Made by a program: the position numbers and the translations under genes. The notes below the pieces were generated by a model that worked only from the letters and a program-made list of their open reading frames with translations, was not told where the DNA came from and searched no databases. Source: Gemmatimonadaceae bacterium (GTDB lineage Bacteria > Gemmatimonadota > Gemmatimonadetes > Gemmatimonadales > Gemmatimonadaceae). From it: 64,000 bases of DNA. The first letter of the stretch is position 1; every line of letters starts with the position of its first letter. Below are positions 2,995 to 46,268 of this stretch, piece after piece. The stretch lies in NCBI GenBank assembly GCA_051859245.1, contig JBHYGA010000001.1:800001-864000 (forward strand), in the 5' to 3' direction.

Positions 2995-4370
2995 GCAAGA
3001 CCAACGGAGGTACTCGCAAGGCGTTCGATCTGGAATCGATGCCGCTCAACGCGTCGCGGCTGCTGTACGAATCGCAGTCGTACTCGGCAGTTGCCCGCTG
3101 GCTGCTCGGCATCCTTGTCGCGCTCATACTCGCGGCCTTCCTGCCGTGGCAGCAGAGCGTGCAGGGTGATGGTATGGTCAGCGCGCTGAGTCCATCAGAC
3201 CGTCCACAATCGTTGCCATCGCGCATTGACGGGCGTGTGGAACGCTGGTTTGTAGCCGAAGGTCAGTTCGTAACTCGCGGCACGCCGATCGTACAGATTT
3301 CGGAAATCAAAGACGAATATCTGGATCCGGAAATTGTCGCGCGCACCACGGAGCAGCTCGAAGCCAAGCGCGCGTCGAATGACGACAAACGCGCCAAGGC
3401 TCGAGCACTGGAGGCGCAGATCGCCGCGTTGACGGAATCGCTTGAGTTCAAGCTTGAACAAACACGCAACAAAGTCCGCCAGCTGGAAGCGGCGGTCGCT
3501 CAGTTCACGCTCGAAGACTCAATCGCGTCCGATCAGTTCGCGCGACGCGATTCGCTGTACCGCTCGCCGCTGGGTCTCGTCTCGCTCAACGATTTGCAGT
3601 CGACGCGCATGCGCGCGCAGGCCGCGTCTGCGGCATTGGTGCAGCGTCGGAATGAGCTGCTCAATGCGCAAATCGAGTTGAACTCACTCGACGCCGAGTA
3701 TCGCGAAAAGATTGAAAAGTCGCGCTCGGATCGCGCTGGCACGCTGGCTGAAGTGGCCGATGGCGAAGTGGAAATTTCAAAGCTGCGCAACAAGGTCGCG
3801 TCGCTTGAAGTCCGTCAGTCGTACTACCGCATTGAAGCGCCGCAGGACGGCTACGTGGTTAAGGCCATCGTGCAGGGTGTGGGCGAGCTGGTGAAAGCCG
3901 GCGATCCCATTGTGACGGTGCAACCGGCCACGCCCCGTCAGGCTGTGGAGCTGTATGTGCGCGCCATGGACGTACCGCTCTTGCAGCCTGGCCGAAAAGT
4001 TCGCTTGCAGTTCGACGGCTGGCCCGCCCTGCAGTTCTCCGGCTGGCCGAGTGTTGCCGTGGGTACGTTTGGTGGCGAGGTCGCGGTGATTGACCAGGTG
4101 GCCAGCGTGGACGGGCGGTTCCGCGTGCTGGTGGTCCCGGATCCGAACGACGATCCGTGGCCCGCGCAGTTGCGCGTCGGATCCGGCGTGTACGGTTGGG
4201 CGCTGCTTGATACCGTGCGTGTGTGGTTCGAGATCTGGCGTCAGTTGAACGGTTTCCCGCCGGCGTTGAATGCGAACACCGCAGCCAGTGGATCCGATGC
4301 GCGCAGCGCGCCGCTTCCGTCGGGTAGCAGCACGTCTGGTGGAAGCAAATCGGGCGGAGGCAGCAAGTGA
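2991..4370 (+). CDS. HlyD family membrane fusion protein
   Basis: N-terminal TM, lipoyl half-motifs (GRVERWFVAEGQFV; IEAPQDGYV), long coiled coil. ATGA overlap with the ABC gene. Confidence 0.92.
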   Translation: MSKTNGGTRKAFDLESMPLNASRLLYESQSYSAVARWLLGILVALILAAFLPWQQSVQGDGMVSALSPSDRPQSLPSRIDGRVERWFVAEGQFVTRGTPIVQISEIKDEYLDPEIVARTTEQLEAKRASNDDKRAKARALEAQIAALTESLEFKLEQTRNKVRQLEAAVAQFTLEDSIASDQFARRDSLYRSPLGLVSLNDLQSTRMRAQAASAALVQRRNELLNAQIELNSLDAEYREKIEKSRSDRAGTLAEVADGEVEISKLRNKVASLEVRQSYYRIEAPQDGYVVKAIVQGVGELVKAGDPIVTVQPATPRQAVELYVRAMDVPLLQPGRKVRLQFDGWPALQFSGWPSVAVGTFGGEVAVIDQVASVDGRFRVLVVPDPNDDPWPAQLRVGSGVYGWALLDTVRVWFEIWRQLNGFPPALNANTAASGSDARSAPLPSGSSTSGGSKSGGGSK

Positions 4371-37427: not shown

Positions 37428-38531
37428 ATGACCGATACGCTGACGCTCCGCCGCACTTCGCTTTTCGACGCCCACGTCTCACTTGGCGCGCGCATCGTGC
37501 CGTTTGCTGGATGGGAGATGCCCGTGCAGTACCCGGCCGGTATTTCTGCCGAGCACAAAGCCGTGCGTGAAGCGTGCGGATTGTTTGATGTGAGTCATAT
37601 GGGTGAGGTGATTGTGAGTGGTCCCGACGCGATGGCGTTCGTGAATCACGTCACCAGCAACGATGTGGCGGCGCTCGCTGTGGGCCAGATCCAGTACAGC
37701 ACCTTGCTGACCGAGCGCGGCACGATCGTTGATGATCTGCTCGTGTATCGATATCCCGATCATCTGTTTCTGGTGATCAACGCCGGCAATCGCGATGCGG
37801 ATATCGCGCATTTGCGCGCGCACATTGGCGCGTTCGATTGCACCATGGAAGACGTGTCGGATTCGTACGCACTGCTGGCGGTGCAGGGGCCCAATGCGCC
37901 GGCGATCGTGCAGCGTTTCACGAGCACACCACTCGGTGAGATGAAGTACTACCGGTTTGCCGACGGCGAAGTGGCCGGCGTGCCGGCGATTATTTCGCGC
38001 ACGGGTTACACCGGTGAGTTGGGTTTTGAACTCTACGTGCCGTGGGAGCAGGCGCGCACTGTGTGGGATGCGCTGATGGCCACGGGCGAGGTCACGCCGT
38101 GCGGACTTGGCGCGCGCGATACGCTGCGTCTTGAAGCCGGCATGGCGTTGTACGGCCATGAACTCAACATTGACACCACACCACTCGAAGCCGGACTCGC
38201 GTGGCTGGTGAAGCTCGGCAAGACCGATTTTCTCGGCAAGGATGTGCTCGTGCATCAGCACACCGATGGGTTGGATCGCAAGCTTGTTGGCTTCACGTTT
38301 GACGAGCGCGCGATTCCGCGCAGCGGGATGCCGGTGTGGTACGGCGACCTCCCGTCAGGCACTGTGTGCAGTGGCACCATGAGTCCCACGCTTGGGATGC
38401 CGATTGGCACCTGTTATTTGCCGGCCGCCGCTGCGGTTGAAGGAACCGTGTTTGCGGTGGACATTCGCGGCAAGCATGTACCGGCGCGCGTGGTGCCACT
38501 GCCATTCTACAAGCGGGCGGGCAAGGCGTGA
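37428..38531 (+). CDS. gcvT: Glycine cleavage system aminomethyltransferase T
   Basis: [37 protein letters not shown]. Confidence 0.97.
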
Positions 38532-40174
38532 GTCGAAGTACCTCGCGTGCGTCGCGCGTAACAGGCGACGGCGTTCCCCTGGGCAGTGTGGCCATTCTGC
38601 TCACCGACGTGGAACCGGCGGTGCGTTTGAACGCCGTGCTCGAAGCACGCGGTGTGCAGGTCACGCTCATCTCGCCACTCGATGATGTGCGCGGCACGCT
38701 GCGTCGCGCGCGTCCCTCGGTGCTGGTGCTCACCGGTGCATTGCTTGACGGTGCGAACGTGGCCCTGGTGCAGGAACAGCTGTGGCACGACGTGAGTGTC
38801 ATGGGACTCACCGATGCGGTCAACGACGAGTTGCTCGACAAGTTGCGCGCGGTGGGCTACGCCGAGCTTGTGTCGAAGCCCGTGGTGGTGGAGGAGCTGG
38901 CCGACAGTGTGCAGCGCCGCCTGGAGCGTCGTGCACTGGCCGATGTCACCGGTCTGGTGGGAGAATCGGAAGCGATTCGCGAAGTGCTCGTGAAAATCGA
39001 ACAGATCGCGCCGGTCACGAGCACCGTGCTCATTGAAGGTGAGAGCGGCACGGGCAAGGAACTCGTGGCGCGTGCGATCCACCGGTTGGGTTCACGTCGC
39101 AGCAAGCCGTTCATTGCGGTGAATGTTGGTGCGTTGCCGGAAACGCTGCTGGAGAGTGAACTCTTTGGCCACGAGAAGGGCTCGTTCACAGGTGCGGCCG
39201 AACGTCGGCTGGGTCGTTTTGAGCTGGCTGACACCGGCACGTTGTTTCTTGATGAGATCGGCGAAGTGCCGAGCAGCACGCAGGTGAAGTTGTTGCGCGT
39301 GCTCGAAGAGCGAGAGGTCACGCGTGTTGGAGGTGGACAGCCGATTGCGGTAGACGTGCGTGTAGTAGCGGCTACGAATCGTCCGCTGCGTGAGCACGTG
39401 GAGGAAGGCGCGTTTCGCGCGGACCTGTACTATCGCTTGAACGTGCTGCGCATTTATCTGCCGCCGCTGCGCGAGCGTCGTGAGGACATTCCGGTGCTGG
39501 TGCGCCGGTTCGTGCGCGAGTTCAGCGCGCTGCACGATCGTCCGTTTCACGGCATCTCGGGCGACGCGCTGGCGCTGCTGGTTTCGTATCCGTGGCCGGG
39601 CAATGTGCGTGAGCTGCGCAACCTTGTGGAGAGCATGGTCGTGCTGGCGCCGGGGCACGAAATCGGCGCGGATGACATTCCGCGGGCGATTCGTGACGCG
39701 GGTGGTCGGCGACTGTTACCGGTGCCCGTTGGCCCTGTGGTGCGCGAGGGTGAACGTGCGCAGGGGCGCGAGCTGGAGTTCATTGTGCGCTCGCTTGTGG
39801 AGCTGAAGTTACAGGTCGAGGAACTTCGTCGTCGAATGGATGTCGAGGTGCGCTCTCCCAGTGTGGGTTGGATGGGCGAAGTGCATCCGGTCGCAGGGCT
39901 GGCTGCGTCTCCGGTAGGTGACGTGTGGGTGGGAAGTGGGGTGATGGGCGGAATTCCGCCGCGTGACCAGGCAACGCCACCGAGCAGCATTTCGGTTGGT
40001 CCGGAAACCACGATGGCGGAAATCGAGCGTCAGGCGATCGAGGCCATGTTGCGTCAAACGGGTGGAAACCGCCGAAAGGCGGCAGATTTGCTCGGGATTG
40101 GGGAGCGGACGCTGTATCGAAAACTCCGGGAATATCAGGGAGACGGCATTCCGCCGGATCTCGACGTCACGTGA
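38528..40174 (+). CDS. Sigma54-dependent enhancer-binding protein with degenerate receiver
   Basis: GESGTGKE, GSFTGA, WPGNVREL, Fis HTH. Receiver-like N-terminus has no phospho-acceptor Asp. Confidence 0.92.
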   Translation: MSRSTSRASRVTGDGVPLGSVAILLTDVEPAVRLNAVLEARGVQVTLISPLDDVRGTLRRARPSVLVLTGALLDGANVALVQEQLWHDVSVMGLTDAVNDELLDKLRAVGYAELVSKPVVVEELADSVQRRLERRALADVTGLVGESEAIREVLVKIEQIAPVTSTVLIEGESGTGKELVARAIHRLGSRRSKPFIAVNVGALPETLLESELFGHEKGSFTGAAERRLGRFELADTGTLFLDEIGEVPSSTQVKLLRVLEEREVTRVGGGQPIAVDVRVVAATNRPLREHVEEGAFRADLYYRLNVLRIYLPPLRERREDIPVLVRRFVREFSALHDRPFHGISGDALALLVSYPWPGNVRELRNLVESMVVLAPGHEIGADDIPRAIRDAGGRRLLPVPVGPVVREGERAQGRELEFIVRSLVELKLQVEELRRRMDVEVRSPSVGWMGEVHPVAGLAASPVGDVWVGSGVMGGIPPRDQATPPSSISVGPETTMAEIERQAIEAMLRQTGGNRRKAADLLGIGERTLYRKLREYQGDGIPPDLDVT

Positions 40175-40350
40175 GGTTTGGGGGGATACGTCCATGTGTT
40201 ACAAGATCTTGGACGATTCCCACTATTGCTCAAACGTGACTTTCCCCACATATTGGCCCCGTCGTCAAGCGACCCCTGCTGTTTCGCAGATGGTCGTGCC
40301 GGCGGGATTCTTCCTTCGTTCGATATTCGGGGAGCAGACCGCAGGCTTAT

Positions 40351-41352
40351 GTGGACCGCACTCCGGAGACCGATCTGTCCATTCCAGCGAATCTGGGCCT
40401 TCCCTTGACGTCGAGCGGCAATCCCAGCCTTGGGCAGTCGGGCACGATCGCGGGCAGTGTATTGCCGCTTCGTCGGGCAGAGGAGTTGATCGTCACGTTA
40501 CCGGGGGTCCTGAGTGTACGGATCGTGCCGAACGAGACGGGAGCGATCGACGAAGTCCACGTGCTGACCACAGATGCGGTTCCCCCAAAGAACACCGTTC
40601 GCAATATCGAAAGCGCGCTGATGGCGCAGCTCGGGTTGCGGGTGAATCATCGAAAGATTTCGGTCGCGACCACGCTGGACGCGCCTCGGGCGTCGGATCA
40701 GGCGTCGGAGCGGGTGGTCGAACGTTCGGCCGACCGAGTGGCCTCGCGTCAGCCCGAGACCACGTATATGCCGCCTGGCAGCGCGCCGCTGGCGGGAGCG
40801 CCGCTGGCAGGGGCGCCGCTGGCGAGTGCGCCGGTTGGCAGCTCGCCGATGGGCGATGCGCCTCTGCGAGAAGCCCCGGCCATGCGCAACGCACCGATGC
40901 GCGCCGGTTCTCGGCTGTCGGAAGCGACGCAGGCGTTAGCTGCCGCCGAAGGGCGCCGGGTGCTGATCTTCGAGGATGTGGAAGTTCGCCGGTCGCGTTC
41001 CAAGGGTGTGCTGTGCCGCGTGACGCTGAGCCGCGAGCAGTCGCACTACGTGGGCGAGTCGGAAGGACAGGAATCAGAGCGCAGCCGGGTGGAGTTGGCG
41101 GCGCGTGCGGCATTGTCAGCGATTTCACAGGCGGCCTCGGCCTCCGCGGGCGGGGAGCGCTCGGTGGCGCTCGAGGGGGCCAAGCTGATGGACGCGTTCG
41201 ACCGCGAGTTTGTGTTTGTGAGTGTGACCGCTCGCATCGGTCGCGAAATGGTGGTGCTGACCGGGAGCTGCGAGGTACGCGAGAGCGCCGAAACATCGGC
41301 GGTGCTGGCCGTACTGGACGCGACGAATCGTTGGCTGCATTTGGAGCGCTGA
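40351..41352 (+). CDS. Two-domain hypothetical protein with low-complexity linker
   Basis: 333-aa ORF with host-like codons. N-domain IDEVHVL...PKNTVRNIESAL...ISVA, APLAG-repeat linker, alpha/beta C-domain ending AVLDATNRW. Start uncertain. Confidence 0.8.
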   Translation: MDRTPETDLSIPANLGLPLTSSGNPSLGQSGTIAGSVLPLRRAEELIVTLPGVLSVRIVPNETGAIDEVHVLTTDAVPPKNTVRNIESALMAQLGLRVNHRKISVATTLDAPRASDQASERVVERSADRVASRQPETTYMPPGSAPLAGAPLAGAPLASAPVGSSPMGDAPLREAPAMRNAPMRAGSRLSEATQALAAAEGRRVLIFEDVEVRRSRSKGVLCRVTLSREQSHYVGESEGQESERSRVELAARAALSAISQAASASAGGERSVALEGAKLMDAFDREFVFVSVTARIGREMVVLTGSCEVRESAETSAVLAVLDATNRWLHLER

Positions 41353-41381
41353 TCAGGGACTCGTCTCGTGATCAGCTTTTT
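41348..41381 (+). terminator. Intrinsic terminator
   Basis: GCTGATCA...TGATCAGC stem followed by TTTTT, overlapping the stop codon of 40351..41352. Confidence 0.75.
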
Positions 41382-41550
41382 ATTCCTTCCTTCCCATTTG
41401 TCTAACGACAACCTCAAAAACGTCCCCCGTCGCCCAGTAGAGCGGAGCTGAGCGGGCAGGCCATCAGGTAGTTGAGCGGAGCCAACCTAGCACCAGCATG
41501 CGGAGACCATCGGTCCTGCGTGACTACGCATACAGGGAGGTGACGTTGCA

Positions 41551-41622
41551 ATGGAATTCATGGCCCAGCTCGTGAGTGCTATGTGGTCGTTCGTTTTGGC
41601 CGACGCGAAGACCTGGTCTTGA
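41551..41622 (+). CDS. 23-aa small peptide MEFMAQLVSAMWSFVLADAKTWS (not in the ORF track)
   Basis: SD GGAGGTGA at 41536-41543, 7 nt before ATG. Hydrophobic core followed by ADAKTWS and TGA. Ends 44 nt before the HD-GYP gene. Confidence 0.75.
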   Translation: MEFMAQLVSAMWSFVLADAKTWS

Positions 41623-41666
41623 TCCTGATCTGACGCGGTGGGGGACTCCTTTTCTTAATCATCGAA

Positions 41667-42989
41667 ATGCCGCCGAGAGTACTTGCGTACGTCTACGTAG
41701 TCGCTGCGACAGCCATTATGGCTGCCGCGGCGCTTTGGCGTCGCGATCCCTCGTTGAACTTCGATTATTTGCTTGGCTCTTTGGGGCTTGTCGTCCTTGG
41801 AGCGTACACCGCAGTCGCCAAGTACAAGACTAGCCGGAGTGCAGATGGTGAGGTGTCGTTCATTCCTTACCTAACGGCGATCATGATCTATCCGAATTGG
41901 TCCACAATCGGGTTGATTGGAGTCGCAGTCGGTGCAACCGAGCTGTCGAAGAAGAAACACTTTGTTAAGCGCCTCTTTAACACTTCACAGTTTCTTCTAG
42001 CGTCCTCTACGGCGATGTTTGTCTACCTCGGTTTGGGAGGTGTTCCGCTCGCCGAGGATAGTAGCTTCAAAATGTTCGCGCATACGGGAGGCGTGGTTTC
42101 ATTCCTCCTTGTCAACTCCTTCGCGGTTGCTGCGGTAATCGCGATCGCTGAGAAGAAGAATGTGTTTCGTCTCTTCTTCGACGCGAACCGCTCGTCATTT
42201 CTGTACGATCTGTTTGCTATTCCTGGTGTTTACGGAGTCGCGCGCGCGTTCACCGACTGGAGCTGGTGGGGGTTGCTCGTCACGGTGGCTTTGCTTTATG
42301 GCGTTCGGCTGATGTATCAGGCAAAGTTGCAGCTAGAGAATACCAACAGGGAGCTTCTTGAGCTCTTCGTGCACACCGTTGAATTCCGAGATCCTTACAC
42401 TTCAGGCCACTCGCAGCGAGTGGCTCGGATATCGAAGATCATCGCGCGCGCAATAGGCCTGCCAAATCGAGAAGTGGAACGCATCGGGAAAGCTGCACTG
42501 CTTCACGACGTTGGGAAGATCCACGAGATTTTTGCACCGATTCTTAGCAAACCCGGTAAGCTTACGCCGGAAGAGCGCGCGATCATGGAGTTGCATCCAG
42601 TGAAGTCGGCCGAACTCGTTTCAAAGCTGAGCGACTTCAACAACATCATTGACGACGTTCGGCATCATCACGAGAACTTCGACGGAACTGGGTACCCAGA
42701 CCGGCTCGTTGGGAAGTCCATTCCGCTCGGATCGCGGATCATCATGTTCGCAGATACGATCGATGCGATGACCACCGATCGACCGTACAGAAAGGCACTC
42801 GGCCCTGAGGCGGTTAAGGCCGAGTTGGTTCGGTGCCGGGGGCAGCAGTTTGACCCGGACATTTGTGATGCCCTCCTTGCGAGCAACGACTACCATCTGC
42901 TTTTCGGTGGCGTCGAGGGAGTTTCCGTTCCGTCGCTGACGCAGATCCTTGATCGCGTCCGAAAGTCGCGAACGCCAGCCACAGTGTAG
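41667..42989 (+). CDS. Membrane-integral HD-GYP cyclic-dinucleotide phosphodiesterase
   Basis: About 7 TM N-terminal region. HSQRVA, HDVGK, HHENFDGTGYP, ADTIDAMTTDRPYRKAL, QFDP are all intact. Confidence 0.93.
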   Translation: MPPRVLAYVYVVAATAIMAAAALWRRDPSLNFDYLLGSLGLVVLGAYTAVAKYKTSRSADGEVSFIPYLTAIMIYPNWSTIGLIGVAVGATELSKKKHFVKRLFNTSQFLLASSTAMFVYLGLGGVPLAEDSSFKMFAHTGGVVSFLLVNSFAVAAVIAIAEKKNVFRLFFDANRSSFLYDLFAIPGVYGVARAFTDWSWWGLLVTVALLYGVRLMYQAKLQLENTNRELLELFVHTVEFRDPYTSGHSQRVARISKIIARAIGLPNREVERIGKAALLHDVGKIHEIFAPILSKPGKLTPEERAIMELHPVKSAELVSKLSDFNNIIDDVRHHHENFDGTGYPDRLVGKSIPLGSRIIMFADTIDAMTTDRPYRKALGPEAVKAELVRCRGQQFDPDICDALLASNDYHLLFGGVEGVSVPSLTQILDRVRKSRTPATV

Positions 42990-43010
42990 CAACGTTGGTT
43001 CCTCTGAGCA

Positions 43011-46000
43011 CTACTTCTGCGGTCTAGTGCGCAACGATACGGTCGCTGCGTTCGCGATTTCGAGGAGCTCGTGTTGAAGTACATCGAATACGAAGCCGGG
43101 TTGCGAAAGCTCCCTGCGGTCCACTCCGAAGTAGCGGGCGCAAAGCTCACGAGCGAGCTCCAACTTGCCCGACTCGTGAAGCTTCTGCATCACCGAGGCC
43201 GCTAGGAAGTCCTGTCCTGAATACCTACCGTAGGACGTCAGGTAGTGCGTCGCCCGCTCCAACAGAGCCTGGAATGTGGTCGCGTCTGCCACCACGTCTT
43301 CAGCATGAAGACAGAGAGCTGTACAGTATAGGGTCAGCCTCGTTGGCTTCGTCAACCCAGCGGTTGCGAATGCCAGAGCCTCCTGTGACGAAACTAGCTT
43401 CCCGAATGACAGATGTTCGAGTCGAAGGTTAAACAGTCGAACCCAAGTCTCGCCCTCATGCTCCGGAAGCTGTCCGTGCAGAGCAAATGATCTGCCTAAG
43501 TCGATTGCTCGTCCTCGATCGGCTCCTTCGAAGGCTATGACGGTTTTGCGCCACAAAATGTCTAGTAGCCTCGATGAGCTTTCCTGCACTTGTTGAGATT
43601 TCTCCGCTGTGTTTAGGCAGTCCATCGCGCTGACAACGTCACCGCAGACTCGATGCACAAGCGAGGCGTTGTTGAGTAGTCGAAGCCCCGAAAGGGTCTG
43701 CGCATGTAACTCGCGATCCTTGTGAACCGCAACCGCGAGTTTATTGGCTGACTGCAAATCTCCGAAAATTGTGTTGAACTGCATCATTGGCTCGATGACG
43801 TCTTCTTCCTTCACAACACCCGTACGATGCGTCTCGGCCAACATTGAATACGCCCGAAGTCCAATATCTGCCTCGAAGAGATCCGAGGCAGCTGTCAATG
43901 CGACGCGAATGGCACGGATTTGAGTGACGCCATCTCCTTCCGCTCCGGCAGCGATGTCTAATGCTGCGAGTGCGCTCTCCCGACCTGTGCGCTGTAAGTC
44001 TGTGTGTACTGAGGCTTCGATCTGTGACAGTTTCTGCGCAATCGACAGTTGCGTAGCGCCTTCACCATTGCCCAGAAGTTTGTCAGTCGCTCGAGCGACG
44101 AGCCGCCAACTGAAAGCACGTTCTGCAGAAACGACCATTGCATTTAGTATGCTTGTTCGCGCTGAAGCTTCGGAACAGAGATTCAACGCTGACTCCAAAA
44201 ATCTTAGGATGCCGTCGCCCATTCCCGAGTTTGAGAGCCGGTCTGAGTGTTCTAGGCACATGCTCACGAACAAGCTTGCGTCCCCGGATTCCAAAGCAAG
44301 CGATAAGGATCGAAAGGCGTCCTCTACTGAAAATATCGTTCGCAGTCTATTGCTCAGCTGAGTGGCGAGGTCGCGACGGAGCATCTGTAGCTCTGTACTG
44401 GTGAGCTCTGAATGGACAACTCGACGCACTTCGTCGTGACAGGAAATTTCCCCGGCCGCTCCCTCGTGAAGAAGTCCAGCGTTCATCAAGGCTCGAATCG
44501 CCTTGAGGCGATTGGCCAAACCAAACCCAAATGAATCGTCTAGGTCCATTGAGGTGGCTTTTCCGCCGAGGACCGCGGCGACCGCGACCATGAACCTTTC
44601 TTCAGGCTGCAGTCGGCGAATCTGACGAGCAAGAGTCGCCGCGAGAGAGGCGCTCGACCCGCCAGTGAGGCCCGTAACCAGATGTTCGCGGGCTAGTGCG
44701 ATTACGCTCAGCGGAGTGCTGTCGCTGGATACGGCGATGAGAGTGGCCGATTTCGAATCGAGGCGCCGACCTGTCGGCGTAGAAACAAGTGATGCGATCT
44801 CAACACATGCCTTGTGCGACAATTTTTGCAGAAGCACTGTGGTCTGATGACCGTCTTGCGAATCCCCCTCACGTTCTCCAGCCTGATCTTCTCGTTTCGT
44901 AAATACAAAAAGCAGTCGCTCGTGTTGAAATAGATCGAGCATCTCCAGAATGACTTCCGAGGAGTGCACATCCGCTCGCTGCAGATCGTCGATAAGCACT
45001 ATTAGCGGCGTTTCCTCGGCGATCGCAGCTATGAGCTCATACAAGCATTCGTGAAGGGGAGTCTTCGAGTTGGCAAGCCAAGGCGATTCACCTGGGGGAA
45101 GTTCGACTTCTGAGCCTGCGCACTTGCGAAGGACAGTTAACGCCTCTGGAGTGCATCCGAGGGCGCCTGGGAGTCGGAGAAGGCTGCGCACCAAATGCGC
45201 AAGAGTTCCGAACTTCACCGTACTGTCAAAATGAGACACCCTCACCAAACACCGCGCGAACCCAAGTATCATCGCACGACGCGTCACCTCGTACGCCAAC
45301 TCGGTCTTGCCAATGCCCGCCGGGCCGAGCAATCGCACGATGCGCGGTTCGCCTTGCATGGCGGATAGTGTGAGTGCGTCGAGCTTCTGCAATTCGGCAT
45401 CGCGACCAACAAGTCGCGGCGTGGCGGCTTCGTCGTGCGATAAGCGCACGGCGCGTTCGATGCGCTGCTGCGCCTTCTCGACACGACGGCCAAGATCCGT
45501 GCCGCCCACGCCCGTCTCGCGCACGTATGACTCCAGCAACGACGATGCGTTGACTCGACTCCCAAGCATGGCCACCGCTTCGGCCACGATCAACGTGGCG
45601 TCTTCGTTGAAGGGGTCAAACTCCAGCACGGTACGCGCCCAGCGCTCAGCTTCCTCCCACTCACCGCGATCGCGAAGGCGGCGCAACTCCGGCACAAGAA
45701 TGCGACGCACGTCAGCGTGATAGAGCTCGCGCTGCTGCTCCACCCAACGGCGCAGCGCAGAATAGCTCGGCAGCCAACCGGCGAACAGATGACCAAAGGG
45801 CTCCTGACCTTTGAGCACATCACGGTCGAACAACAGTGCCGTTCGATCCAGCGCAAAGCACGGCAGAAACGTGGTGCGCAGCATTCGCACCGACGCGCGG
45901 CTGCTTTCAATCTCCACGCCGAGTTGACGCAGCTTGTACACGTGCTGACGCAGCGAGTGACGCGCCGATGCATCGTCCATGCCTGGCCACACGAGTTCCA

Positions 46001-46268
46001 TCAGGCTCTCGCGGGCGATCACGTGCTCATGCGACATGCCCACCACCACGAGCAGCGAAAACATGCGCTCGGCGCCCGGCGCGATGACGCCACCACCGCC
46101 AATGTGAATCTCCGCCGTGCCGAGCGTGCGAAAGAGCACCTGCCCGCGTTCAAGCGCGGGCAGCGGCAGCGGTTCAGGCGCGTAGAAGGATTCCAGAGGC
46201 ATCTCATCCAGGGCGAGCGCCGAAGCGGTCGAAATCATTGGCTTCTCCAGGTGGCGGGTAGACGTCAT
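43011..46268 (-). CDS. SARP/BTAD + STAND-type AAA ATPase transcriptional regulator
   Basis: RESLMELVWP..ARHSLRQ wHTH, BTAD (LEFDPFNE), LVGRDAEL, Walker A GPAGIGKT, Walker B IVLIDDLQ, helical C-terminus. Confidence 0.85.
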   Translation of the reverse strand: MTSTRHLEKPMISTASALALDEMPLESFYAPEPLPLPALERGQVLFRTLGTAEIHIGGGGVIAPGAERMFSLLVVVGMSHEHVIARESLMELVWPGMDDASARHSLRQHVYKLRQLGVEIESSRASVRMLRTTFLPCFALDRTALLFDRDVLKGQEPFGHLFAGWLPSYSALRRWVEQQRELYHADVRRILVPELRRLRDRGEWEEAERWARTVLEFDPFNEDATLIVAEAVAMLGSRVNASSLLESYVRETGVGGTDLGRRVEKAQQRIERAVRLSHDEAATPRLVGRDAELQKLDALTLSAMQGEPRIVRLLGPAGIGKTELAYEVTRRAMILGFARCLVRVSHFDSTVKFGTLAHLVRSLLRLPGALGCTPEALTVLRKCAGSEVELPPGESPWLANSKTPLHECLYELIAAIAEETPLIVLIDDLQRADVHSSEVILEMLDLFQHERLLFVFTKREDQAGEREGDSQDGHQTTVLLQKLSHKACVEIASLVSTPTGRRLDSKSATLIAVSSDSTPLSVIALAREHLVTGLTGGSSASLAATLARQIRRLQPEERFMVAVAAVLGGKATSMDLDDSFGFGLANRLKAIRALMNAGLLHEGAAGEISCHDEVRRVVHSELTSTELQMLRRDLATQLSNRLRTIFSVEDAFRSLSLALESGDASLFVSMCLEHSDRLSNSGMGDGILRFLESALNLCSEASARTSILNAMVVSAERAFSWRLVARATDKLLGNGEGATQLSIAQKLSQIEASVHTDLQRTGRESALAALDIAAGAEGDGVTQIRAIRVALTAASDLFEADIGLRAYSMLAETHRTGVVKEEDVIEPMMQFNTIFGDLQSANKLAVAVHKDRELHAQTLSGLRLLNNASLVHRVCGDVVSAMDCLNTAEKSQQVQESSSRLLDILWRKTVIAFEGADRGRAIDLGRSFALHGQLPEHEGETWVRLFNLRLEHLSFGKLVSSQEALAFATAGLTKPTRLTLYCTALCLHAEDVVADATTFQALLERATHYLTSYGRYSGQDFLAASVMQKLHESGKLELARELCARYFGVDRRELSQPGFVFDVLQHELLEIANAATVSLRTRPQK

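Follow-up and report, generated by a model that had tools for sequence, protein, structure and literature searches.

A conserved micro-ORF within a structured leader RNA most likely controls output of a membrane-bound HD-GYP phosphodiesterase in Gemmatimonadota

The DNA analyzed here (the window) is a stretch of 64,000 nucleotides (nt) from a Gemmatimonadaceae bacterium (assembly GCA_051859245.1, contig JBHYGA010000001.1, positions 800,001 to 864,000 of the forward strand), and all positions are counted from its first letter. At 41667-42989 on the plus strand it carries a gene for a cyclic-di-GMP (c-di-GMP) phosphodiesterase, in which a polytopic membrane N-terminal domain with a partial MASE9 match is joined to an HD-GYP phosphodiesterase domain (Pfam HD_5, 1.5e-34; HD, 1e-18; MASE9, 5e-6) with intact HDVGK and HHHENFDGTGYP motifs. 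Upstream of this gene and on the same strand lies a micro open reading frame (micro-ORF) of 23 codons, which extends from an ATG at 41551 to a TGA at 41620-41622 and encodes the peptide MEFMAQLVSAMWSFVLADAKTWS. Comparison with related loci indicates that the micro-ORF belongs to a structured 5' leader that is conserved over ~270 nt, roughly 41398-41666, and that it most likely controls, by its own translation, the output of the membrane-bound enzyme. An earlier note, made from the letters of this DNA, had singled out the ORF; the main point beyond it is that a larger conserved RNA structure surrounds the ORF and would tie its translation to the start of the HD-GYP gene.

The micro-ORF and its Shine-Dalgarno (SD) sequence lie exactly where the earlier note had placed them, with the SD GGAGGTGA at 41536-41543 and a spacer of 7 nt (CGTTGCA) to the ATG. 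That this is the strongest SD in the window, as had also been claimed, holds as well: its duplex energy against a CCUCC-type anti-SD is -12.2 kcal/mol, compared with -9.5 kcal/mol for the best of 39 long window ORFs, whose starts were crudely assigned by taking the longest ORF. On the same scale the HD-GYP gene at 41667 is the weakest of the 39 (+2.4 kcal/mol) and has no SD at normal spacing, in line with the remark that it lacks a clear one. In this window of 62% G+C, most genes have little or no SD complementarity before their crudely assigned starts, and a single one of the 56 GGAGG sites stands at the start of a long ORF (at 4356, before the GTG at 4367). Initiation in this host thus seems to be largely SD-independent, and against this background the 8-nt SD of the micro-ORF is all the more striking. 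The region 39000-45000 is overlapped by 91 ORFs of at least 20 amino acids (aa), and at 15 of the 56 GGAGG sites a start codon follows 3-12 nt on and opens at least 20 codons. Taken alone, the micro-ORF and its SD are within chance expectation; we judge the micro-ORF to be real because it is kept in relatives. By exact look-up, none of seven family peptides, the window's included, is found in a collection of 15 billion proteins, which fits the earlier expectation that standard annotation would miss it, and no NCBIfam model matches the micro-ORF peptide.

Related loci were gathered with a scan for the HD-GYP protein, taking one genome per species, and 80 loci, the best among at least 545 related stretches, were compared. 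Nearly all of these stem from metagenome-assembled genomes (MAGs) of Gemmatimonadota, the window's own genome not being included, and their HD-GYP orthologues show 42-72% protein identity. The search with tblastn that the earlier note had called for was productive: the 23-aa peptide has a counterpart of 22-23 codons just 5' of the HD-GYP orthologue in ~30 loci, and peptide identity is often above enzyme identity (87% versus 72% in locus L001, 83% versus 60% in locus L003). A pattern scan located a short ORF of 16-35 codons, led by an SD, at the equivalent position in 76 of the 80 loci, with stops 20-52 nt before the HD-GYP orthologue. Three of the four other loci have less than 80 nt of upstream DNA, and the fourth, L047, has a divergent ORF that was spotted by eye.

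The encoded peptides form several very different subfamilies of 16-35 residues with a common ending. Tryptophan is the penultimate residue in 72 of 77 ORFs and the last one in four, the exception being locus L057; once L047 is counted, 76 of 78 ORFs have a penultimate or last Trp. Aspartate or glutamate occupies the position four residues before this Trp in 61 of 75 distinct peptides, yielding the C-terminal consensus [D/E]-x3-W-x. The stop codon is TAG in 28 ORFs, TGA in 25 and TAA in 24, and the final residue varies (G in 21, T in 19, A in 7, W in 5, others; absent in four). A UGG codon three nt before whichever stop, for which there is no RNA-level explanation, implies translation in this frame.

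Two ORFs depart from this rule. The one in L047 (3743-3814, MFLANPSKSFMSRIFGFFSMMLV) has no Trp and stops 38 nt before the closing helix P1 described below, whereas that in L057 (3900-3962) ends in QILH; both are possibly decaying or re-wired copies. A complete leader with its ORF is also present in L029, L031, L044, L070, L071, L076 and L078, which belong to MAGs labelled Nitrospiraceae, Pyrinomonadaceae, Propylenella, Acidobacteriaceae and Chthoniobacterales and sit mostly on contigs of 3-7.5 kb. These labels could reflect binning errors or a real spread beyond the phylum.

Among 24 close relatives of the window's micro-ORF, synonymous codons alternate freely where the residue is kept. Ala10 is written as GCG (9), GCT (7), GCA (6) or GCC (1) and Ala17 with four codons, while Asp18 alternates between GAC (14) and GAT (6) and Gly23 between GGT (10) and GGC (6). 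The pooled ratio of nonsynonymous to synonymous change (pN/pS), another comparison proposed in the earlier note, is 0.59 in frame versus 0.99 in the +2 frame. At codons 5-8 and 13-16 synonymous change is nearly absent: Leu7 is CTC in 24 of 24 sequences, CAG is kept in 20 of 20 within the stretch of codons 4-8, and TTG is used in 15 of the 16 sequences with Leu16, though CTG is the commonest Leu codon of the window. These stretches therefore appear to be constrained as RNA too. Other positions are free to change, with residue 19 being L in 8, A in 5, T in 5, M in 2 and others in the remainder; residue 2 is Glu in 14 of 24, and W12, the second Trp of the window's peptide, which is not adjacent to the conserved one, is Trp in 14 of 24.

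Across the family, the peptides are hydrophobic in all subfamilies (grand average of hydropathy 0.86 on average, range -0.14 to 1.55), their N-terminus is acidic, and 56 of 75 distinct peptides carry a net charge of -1 or 0. The helical moment is in the top 10% of a peptide's own shuffles for 40% of peptides. A run of at least 18 residues free of charge and Pro is present in only 8 of 75 distinct peptides, the window's run being 15, and 9 of 77 ORFs have no more than 16-17 codons. With a conserved position, SD, start codon and W-x-stop end and a codon-like substitution pattern, the micro-ORF (41551-41622, plus strand) can be regarded, on comparative grounds, as a genuine conserved small gene that annotation has missed. 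Its peptide, which has a hydrophobic or amphipathic body, appears to be selected for its amino acids, so that the product or the nascent chain should matter and do more than occupy a ribosome.

In alignments of 21, 60 and 60 sequences, the stretch of ~130 nt that precedes the ORF is conserved to the same degree as the ORF. The window has a single copy of the conserved core pattern (0 of 100 shuffles have any), and 52 loci likewise have one copy each, invariably at this place. Rfam 15 yielded no match in the window at gathering thresholds and none in 41000-42000 at E <= 10, in a search that included the c-di-GMP-I, c-di-GMP-II and cyclic GMP-AMP (cGAMP) riboswitches.

All elements of the leader lie on the plus strand. 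It is closed by a long-range helix, P1, in which the 5' strand GTCCCCCGTCGC (41422-41433) pairs with the 3' strand GCGGTGGGGGAC (41635-41646), the latter located 12 nt past the ORF stop and 20 nt before the HD-GYP ATG. P1 comprises 12 bp in the window (-23.6 kcal/mol), and an equivalent duplex of 11-18 bp (-20.5 to -35.7 kcal/mol) is present in 60 of 60 distinct leaders. Its core, CCCCCG/CGGGGG, is invariant, while the distal parts vary by subfamily yet remain complementary, with 7 of 12 pairs changed on both sides. Distal strands pair at -10.7 kcal/mol with their cognate and at -7.5 kcal/mol with non-cognate partners, and in 24 of the 60 loci fewer than 10% of foreign P1 partners match the cognate pairing.

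Enclosed by P1 is a second stem that would sequester the SD of the micro-ORF. In the minimum-energy fold, the anti-SD strand of helix P3 (AGCGGAGCCAACCT, 41475-41488) pairs with 41534-41547, the strand that holds the SD GGAGGTGA and reads GG(G/A)GGTGACG in every one of 60 leaders. P3 is built of short helices parted by purine-purine internal loops, and 98.5% of its alignment cells are paired over 60 sequences. The tip of the stem is the hairpin P4 (41495-41525), seen in the window fold and marked by strong covariation: one pair is AU in 32 and GC in 26 cases, another GC in 25 and AU in 24, and 4 of 6 counted pairs have changed on both sides. The P3/P4 hairpin refolds independently in five of five subfamily representatives (-29.5 to -34.8 kcal/mol, z -2.4 to -5.6, the window having z = -2.4). 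For P1, P3 and P4 jointly, 91.6% of 1542 cells are paired versus 83.7 +/- 0.5% in shuffles (0 of 500), and this share drops to 41-51% when helix partners are slid; the covariation score of the three helices is 0.271 versus 0.141 in shuffles, with 0 of 500 reaching the observed value. As would be expected of a riboswitch in general, P1 and P4 covary and the leader always stands 5' of a MASE9/HD-GYP orthologue, and the predicted occlusion of the micro-ORF SD by P3/P4 resembles what a riboswitch expression platform would do.

Between the P1 5' strand and P3 lies a purine-rich 5' domain (AGAGCGGAGCTGAGCGGGCAGGCC..., 41438-41473) with blocks that are nearly invariant in 60 leaders. In the window's subfamily its GAGC..GCC can pair with ORF codons 4-8 (GGCCCAGCTC), which fits the missing synonymous variation there. 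The 5' end of the leader holds a tentative small hairpin, P0 (TTGTC-TAAC-GACAA, 41398-41411), recognized by eye and followed by an A-rich linker; in close relatives the site reads TCGTC...GACGA, by eye a compensatory change, although this region could instead be promoter DNA. At its 3' end, a U/A-rich spacer without SD (41647-41666) leads to the HD-GYP start. A promoter and terminator scan of 41000-43200 gave no plus-strand promoter-like site and no terminator. Regulation by CsrA-type GGA sites was considered and dropped, since the first GGA-containing repeat and the GGA of the SD are not kept in all subfamilies.

We propose, with moderate confidence, that the leader is a gated translational-coupling device for the HD-GYP gene. 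P1 closes the whole leader and encloses both the SD hairpin and the micro-ORF. The SD of the micro-ORF would be locked in the irregular P3/P4 hairpin (41475-41547, ~-30 kcal/mol), with the start codon just 3' of it, and closed P1 would mask the ribosome-binding region of the HD-GYP gene, where a 30S subunit would bind. Some signal, be it a ligand, a protein or temperature, would loosen the SD hairpin, upon which ribosomes could load on the micro-ORF, reach its stop and unzip P1, and the same or a new ribosome would start the HD-GYP gene once P1 has opened. The distances fit such a sequence of events. The stop codon is separated from the first P1-paired base by a median of 3 nt (range -2 to 19; at most 6 nt in 42 of 60 leaders), and the last P1-paired base from the HD-GYP ATG by a median of 10 nt (range -3 to 23; at most 12 nt in 46 of 60). 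Beyond its A site, a ribosome covers roughly 12-15 nt of downstream mRNA, so a ribosome at the micro-ORF stop would have to melt P1 at most loci. In most leaders the terminating ribosome would thus come close enough to the helix that covers the downstream start region; the window, with 12 and 20 nt, is looser. Comparison of the leaders establishes the helices, their spacing and their conservation, and from these we infer the direction of regulation and a signal that opens P3.

Several points weigh against this coupling model. Translation of the micro-ORF and its coupling to the HD-GYP gene are themselves deduced from comparison of nucleotide sequences. The window is the loosest case, with P1 12 nt past the stop and 20 nt before the ATG: here, a terminating ribosome may reach only the edge of P1, and the ATG region itself is unpaired. 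Most genes of the window lack an SD, so the G-run of P1 need not be one, and the HD-GYP gene could initiate without an SD. The whole leader of the window is not more stable than shuffles (z = +1.9 and +1.0). None of the 8 counted pairs of P3 covaries, and because these pairs are invariant, covariation neither supports nor refutes this helix. A P2 helix could not be defined within the purine-rich 5' domain by all-against-all column covariation, which was too noisy for this in one alignment of the leaders. The ORF coordinates of the loci were picked from the pattern scan, the W motif not being used in the picking, and a pN/pS of 0.59 is a moderate signal only. The loose geometry and the unremarkable stability of the whole leader in the window are the reasons why we hold the coupling mechanism to be no better than moderately probable.

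As to what the peptide does, readings in trans and in cis are not mutually exclusive and can both hold. Our first leaning, with somewhat less than even confidence, is towards a trans-acting partner of the enzyme's membrane sensor domain: a microprotein that is produced at a fixed ratio to the enzyme and tunes the activity of the HD-GYP protein by binding to its MASE9 domain or elsewhere on it. In this case the role of the leader RNA would be no more than to co-regulate both genes, which fits the coupling model too. Amino-acid-level selection along the whole peptide speaks for this function, as do the hydrophobicity common to all subfamilies and the frequent amphipathicity, and the Trp may be penultimate or last, so that the register to the stop is not strict. 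MASE9 has been proposed to bind its ligand inside the membrane (preprint 10.1101/2021.11.05.467447), and the polytopic MASE9-type domain encoded next to the micro-ORF would on that proposal sense ligands there. Complex prediction for the 35-aa peptide of locus L032 with its own full-length HD-GYP protein gave 0.57 as the median of three runs, which agree in at least 95% of contacts, while the best of three controls was at 0.00; this grades as weak support, with a partner predicted local distance difference test (pLDDT) score of ~60. At 0.60 or below, however, only 5 of 78 solved complexes passed and all four passing mismatches scored there, and without a high prior, a pass at the level of 0.57 is false more often than true. 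Furthermore, the L032 peptide is not the window's but a length outlier, as no other family member reaches 30 residues; the prediction used no alignments and came without a reported interface. Also against this reading, the peptides differ greatly among subfamilies, few could span a membrane in the conventional way (8 of 75), and 9 of 77 ORFs have 16-17 codons. The earlier note had suggested a single-pass membrane microprotein. This idea has become less likely: the uncharged stretch of ~18 or more residues that a single-pass protein would have is lacking in all but 8 of 75 peptides, and the complex score lends it weak support.

In second place, and tentatively, we consider that the nascent chain acts in cis. 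Positioned in the upper exit tunnel, [D/E]-x3-W-x would slow release at the stop codon, and the paused ribosome, possibly in response to a small molecule, would hold P1 open. In favor of this reading, conservation is anchored at the C-terminus while the length of 16-35 codons varies toward the N-terminus, and since 42 of 60 leaders have the stop no more than 6 nt from P1, dwell time would matter. Known arrest peptides of like size, such as TnaC, PepNL and SpeFL, are encoded by upstream ORFs (uORFs) and stall at stop codons (PMC11890864). On the other hand, the last residue is variable or absent, so that the distance from the Trp to the peptidyl-transferase center is not fixed, and the use of all three stop codons implies that neither release factor is specifically targeted. 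A hydrophobic, amphipathic body would be needless for this role, and NCBIfam offers no sequence-family match.

Both layers might be combined in a sensor that joins a new riboswitch-like RNA domain to a new class of termination-pausing peptides and provides feedback on cyclic-dinucleotide turnover, a scenario that we consider unlikely as a whole. In it, the RNA domain at 41438-41547 would unmask the SD in response to a metabolite, for which a nucleotide second messenger or a compound derived from its breakdown is a plausible candidate, and the nascent [D/E]-x3-W peptide would keep P1 open for HD-GYP synthesis. Just as conceivably, the peptide would act after its release as a ligand of the MASE9 sensor domain, for which no peptide ligand is known so far.

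In pyrBI-type attenuators, a translating ribosome close behind RNA polymerase prevents the terminator from forming. By analogy, P1 and a U-rich tract could make up an intrinsic terminator that a ribosome on the micro-ORF blocks by keeping P1 from forming. Many distant members indeed have a T-run right after the CGGGGG of P1, e.g. GGGGGTTTTTCTCTT, and an A-run before the P1 5' strand. Transcription attenuation is nevertheless improbable: the P1 strands are ~200 nt apart, several subfamilies, the window's close relatives included, have no usable U-tract (e.g. GGCGGGGCATCC and GGGGGTTCCCAAT), and the terminator scan of the region was negative. More doubtful still is a sensor of Trp starvation, in which the lone conserved Trp codon would stall the ribosome when charged tRNA-Trp is scarce and thereby open P1. 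The Trp codon is penultimate or last in 76 of 78 ORFs, and at most loci stalling at this codon would place the ribosome over the start of P1 as well, but this is a single regulatory codon rather than the run of at least two found in trpL-type leaders, D/E at W-4 and other residues are conserved too, and the downstream gene, encoding an HD-GYP phosphodiesterase, is unconnected with Trp metabolism. The idea of the earlier note that a Sec-type precursor is cut after A-D-A to free KTWS as a pheromone can practically be set aside, as only the ADA tripeptide of the window and the conserved Trp near the end favor it, whereas the A-x-A is not conserved (position 19 being variable), a basic n-region is missing (Glu2 in 14 of 24, net charge -1 or 0 in 56 of 75), peptides of 16-23 aa are shorter than a signal peptide plus cargo, and no export, processing, transporter, protease or receptor genes are adjacent.

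The coupled pair of micro-ORF and HD-GYP gene is set in a conserved neighborhood. Upstream lies a gene for a two-domain hypothetical protein specific to Gemmatimonadota (40351-41352, plus strand), syntenic in 58 loci, which has no Pfam or NCBIfam match and whose closest neighbors among the Atlas clusters are hypothetical proteins of Gemmatimonadota. In this protein a Pro/Ala-rich low-complexity linker connects a conserved N-terminal with a conserved C-terminal domain. Its AlphaFold2 model (mean pLDDT 75) shows a C-terminal domain of twice beta-beta-beta-alpha, like the regulatory domain of LeuA/citramalate synthase; Foldseek returned E-values of 1e-5 to 3e-3 to this amino-acid-binding domain, while double-stranded RNA-binding domains match more weakly. 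The upstream protein may be a partner in the system that binds a ligand or RNA. The gene is probably on a separate transcript. In several relatives (L004, L009, L011) a GC-rich, terminator-like hairpin with a T-run, recognized by eye, follows it, which suggests that the leader has its own promoter; at 41353-41397 the window has only a weak TGATCA...TGATCA hairpin and then GCTTTTTATT.

On the other side, a convergent gene for a 1085-aa regulator-like protein with Trans_reg_C (OmpR-type) and AAA_16 domains in Pfam (43011-46268, minus strand) is separated by 21 nt from the end of the HD-GYP gene, and its relatives stand on the opposite strand 3' of HD-GYP in 62 loci. Synteny of the upstream and convergent genes thus points to a conserved three-gene neighborhood, in which the convergent gene is syntenic but merely a candidate for a role in the mechanism. 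Farther upstream, a sigma-54 activator gene (38528-40174) overlaps the stop of a glycine-cleavage T-protein gene (37428-38531) by 4 nt, suggesting ordinary translational coupling at 38528-38531.

The leader would present a well-defined, testable regulatory unit in Gemmatimonadota, a phylum in which almost no post-transcriptional regulation has been described, and more than 75 natural variants with clear covariation and a conserved peptide motif are available. Its architecture is unusual, with a long-range helix around an SD-sequestering hairpin and an ORF of which parts are doubly constrained, as RNA and as protein, and it offers a clean system for parting RNA-level from peptide-level functions of uORFs, with the ORFs of L047 and L057 as natural controls for the W-x-stop rule. 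The family also illustrates that ORFs below the cut-offs of gene callers can be strongly conserved. It bears on structured leaders and riboswitch candidates that await discovery, on the roles of bacterial micro-ORFs in cis or in trans, and on the control of orphan membrane sensor domains of c-di-GMP enzymes, here MASE9.

Literature searches on HD-GYP leader peptides and riboswitches, on structured RNAs and uORFs of Gemmatimonadetes, on MASE9 and on c-di-GMP, small proteins and leaders in Gemmatimonas yielded no description of the element, and the main text of two Breaker-lab motif surveys does not mention 'HD-GYP' or 'Gemmatimon'. Lacking an Rfam match and a peptide family match, and differing in architecture, the leader stands outside the named systems, several of which it resembles in part. 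KdpF, CydX, MgrB and AcrZ are small hydrophobic subunits or regulators encoded beside membrane complexes, and the micro-ORF likewise encodes a very short hydrophobic peptide next to the gene of a polytopic membrane protein, with which it would be co-expressed. In contrast to them, most family peptides lack the length or the hydrophobicity of a canonical transmembrane helix, for which 8 of 75 qualify, and binding is only weakly predicted.

The odc1 motif (uORF-25-1) of alpha-proteobacteria (PMC8632094) is alike in that a conserved structured RNA, a stem of which includes the ribosome-binding site, lies mostly 5' of a short uORF whose peptide is conserved; its authors could not assign the function to the RNA, the peptide or both. 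It differs in sequence, fold, phylum and regulated gene, and its peptide has a fixed length of 11 aa, whereas those described here have 16-35 aa and a C-terminal W motif. TnaC, PepNL, NanCL and SpeFL (PMC11890864) are short uORFs 5' of a regulated gene as well, with residues conserved relative to the stop, and regulation is exerted by the ribosome that sits at the stop codon. Here, stalling is hypothetical, neither the last residue nor the stop codon is fixed, and family searches detect no similarity.

The closest functional parallel is provided by riboswitch-gated uORFs, namely the atypical B12 system of Mycobacterium tuberculosis (PMC11260477) and SAM-II 'translation at a distance' (PMC9373788). 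In both, a structured leader gates a short uORF and translation of the uORF sets downstream expression, as we propose here. The present leader differs from both by the absence of an Rfam aptamer match, the enclosing long-range helix of 11-18 bp and the conserved peptide. It is a member neither of the riboswitch-gated uORFs nor of the arrest peptides nor of odc1, but its mode of action appears to be that of a riboswitch-gated uORF, and it may share that of the arrest peptides as well.

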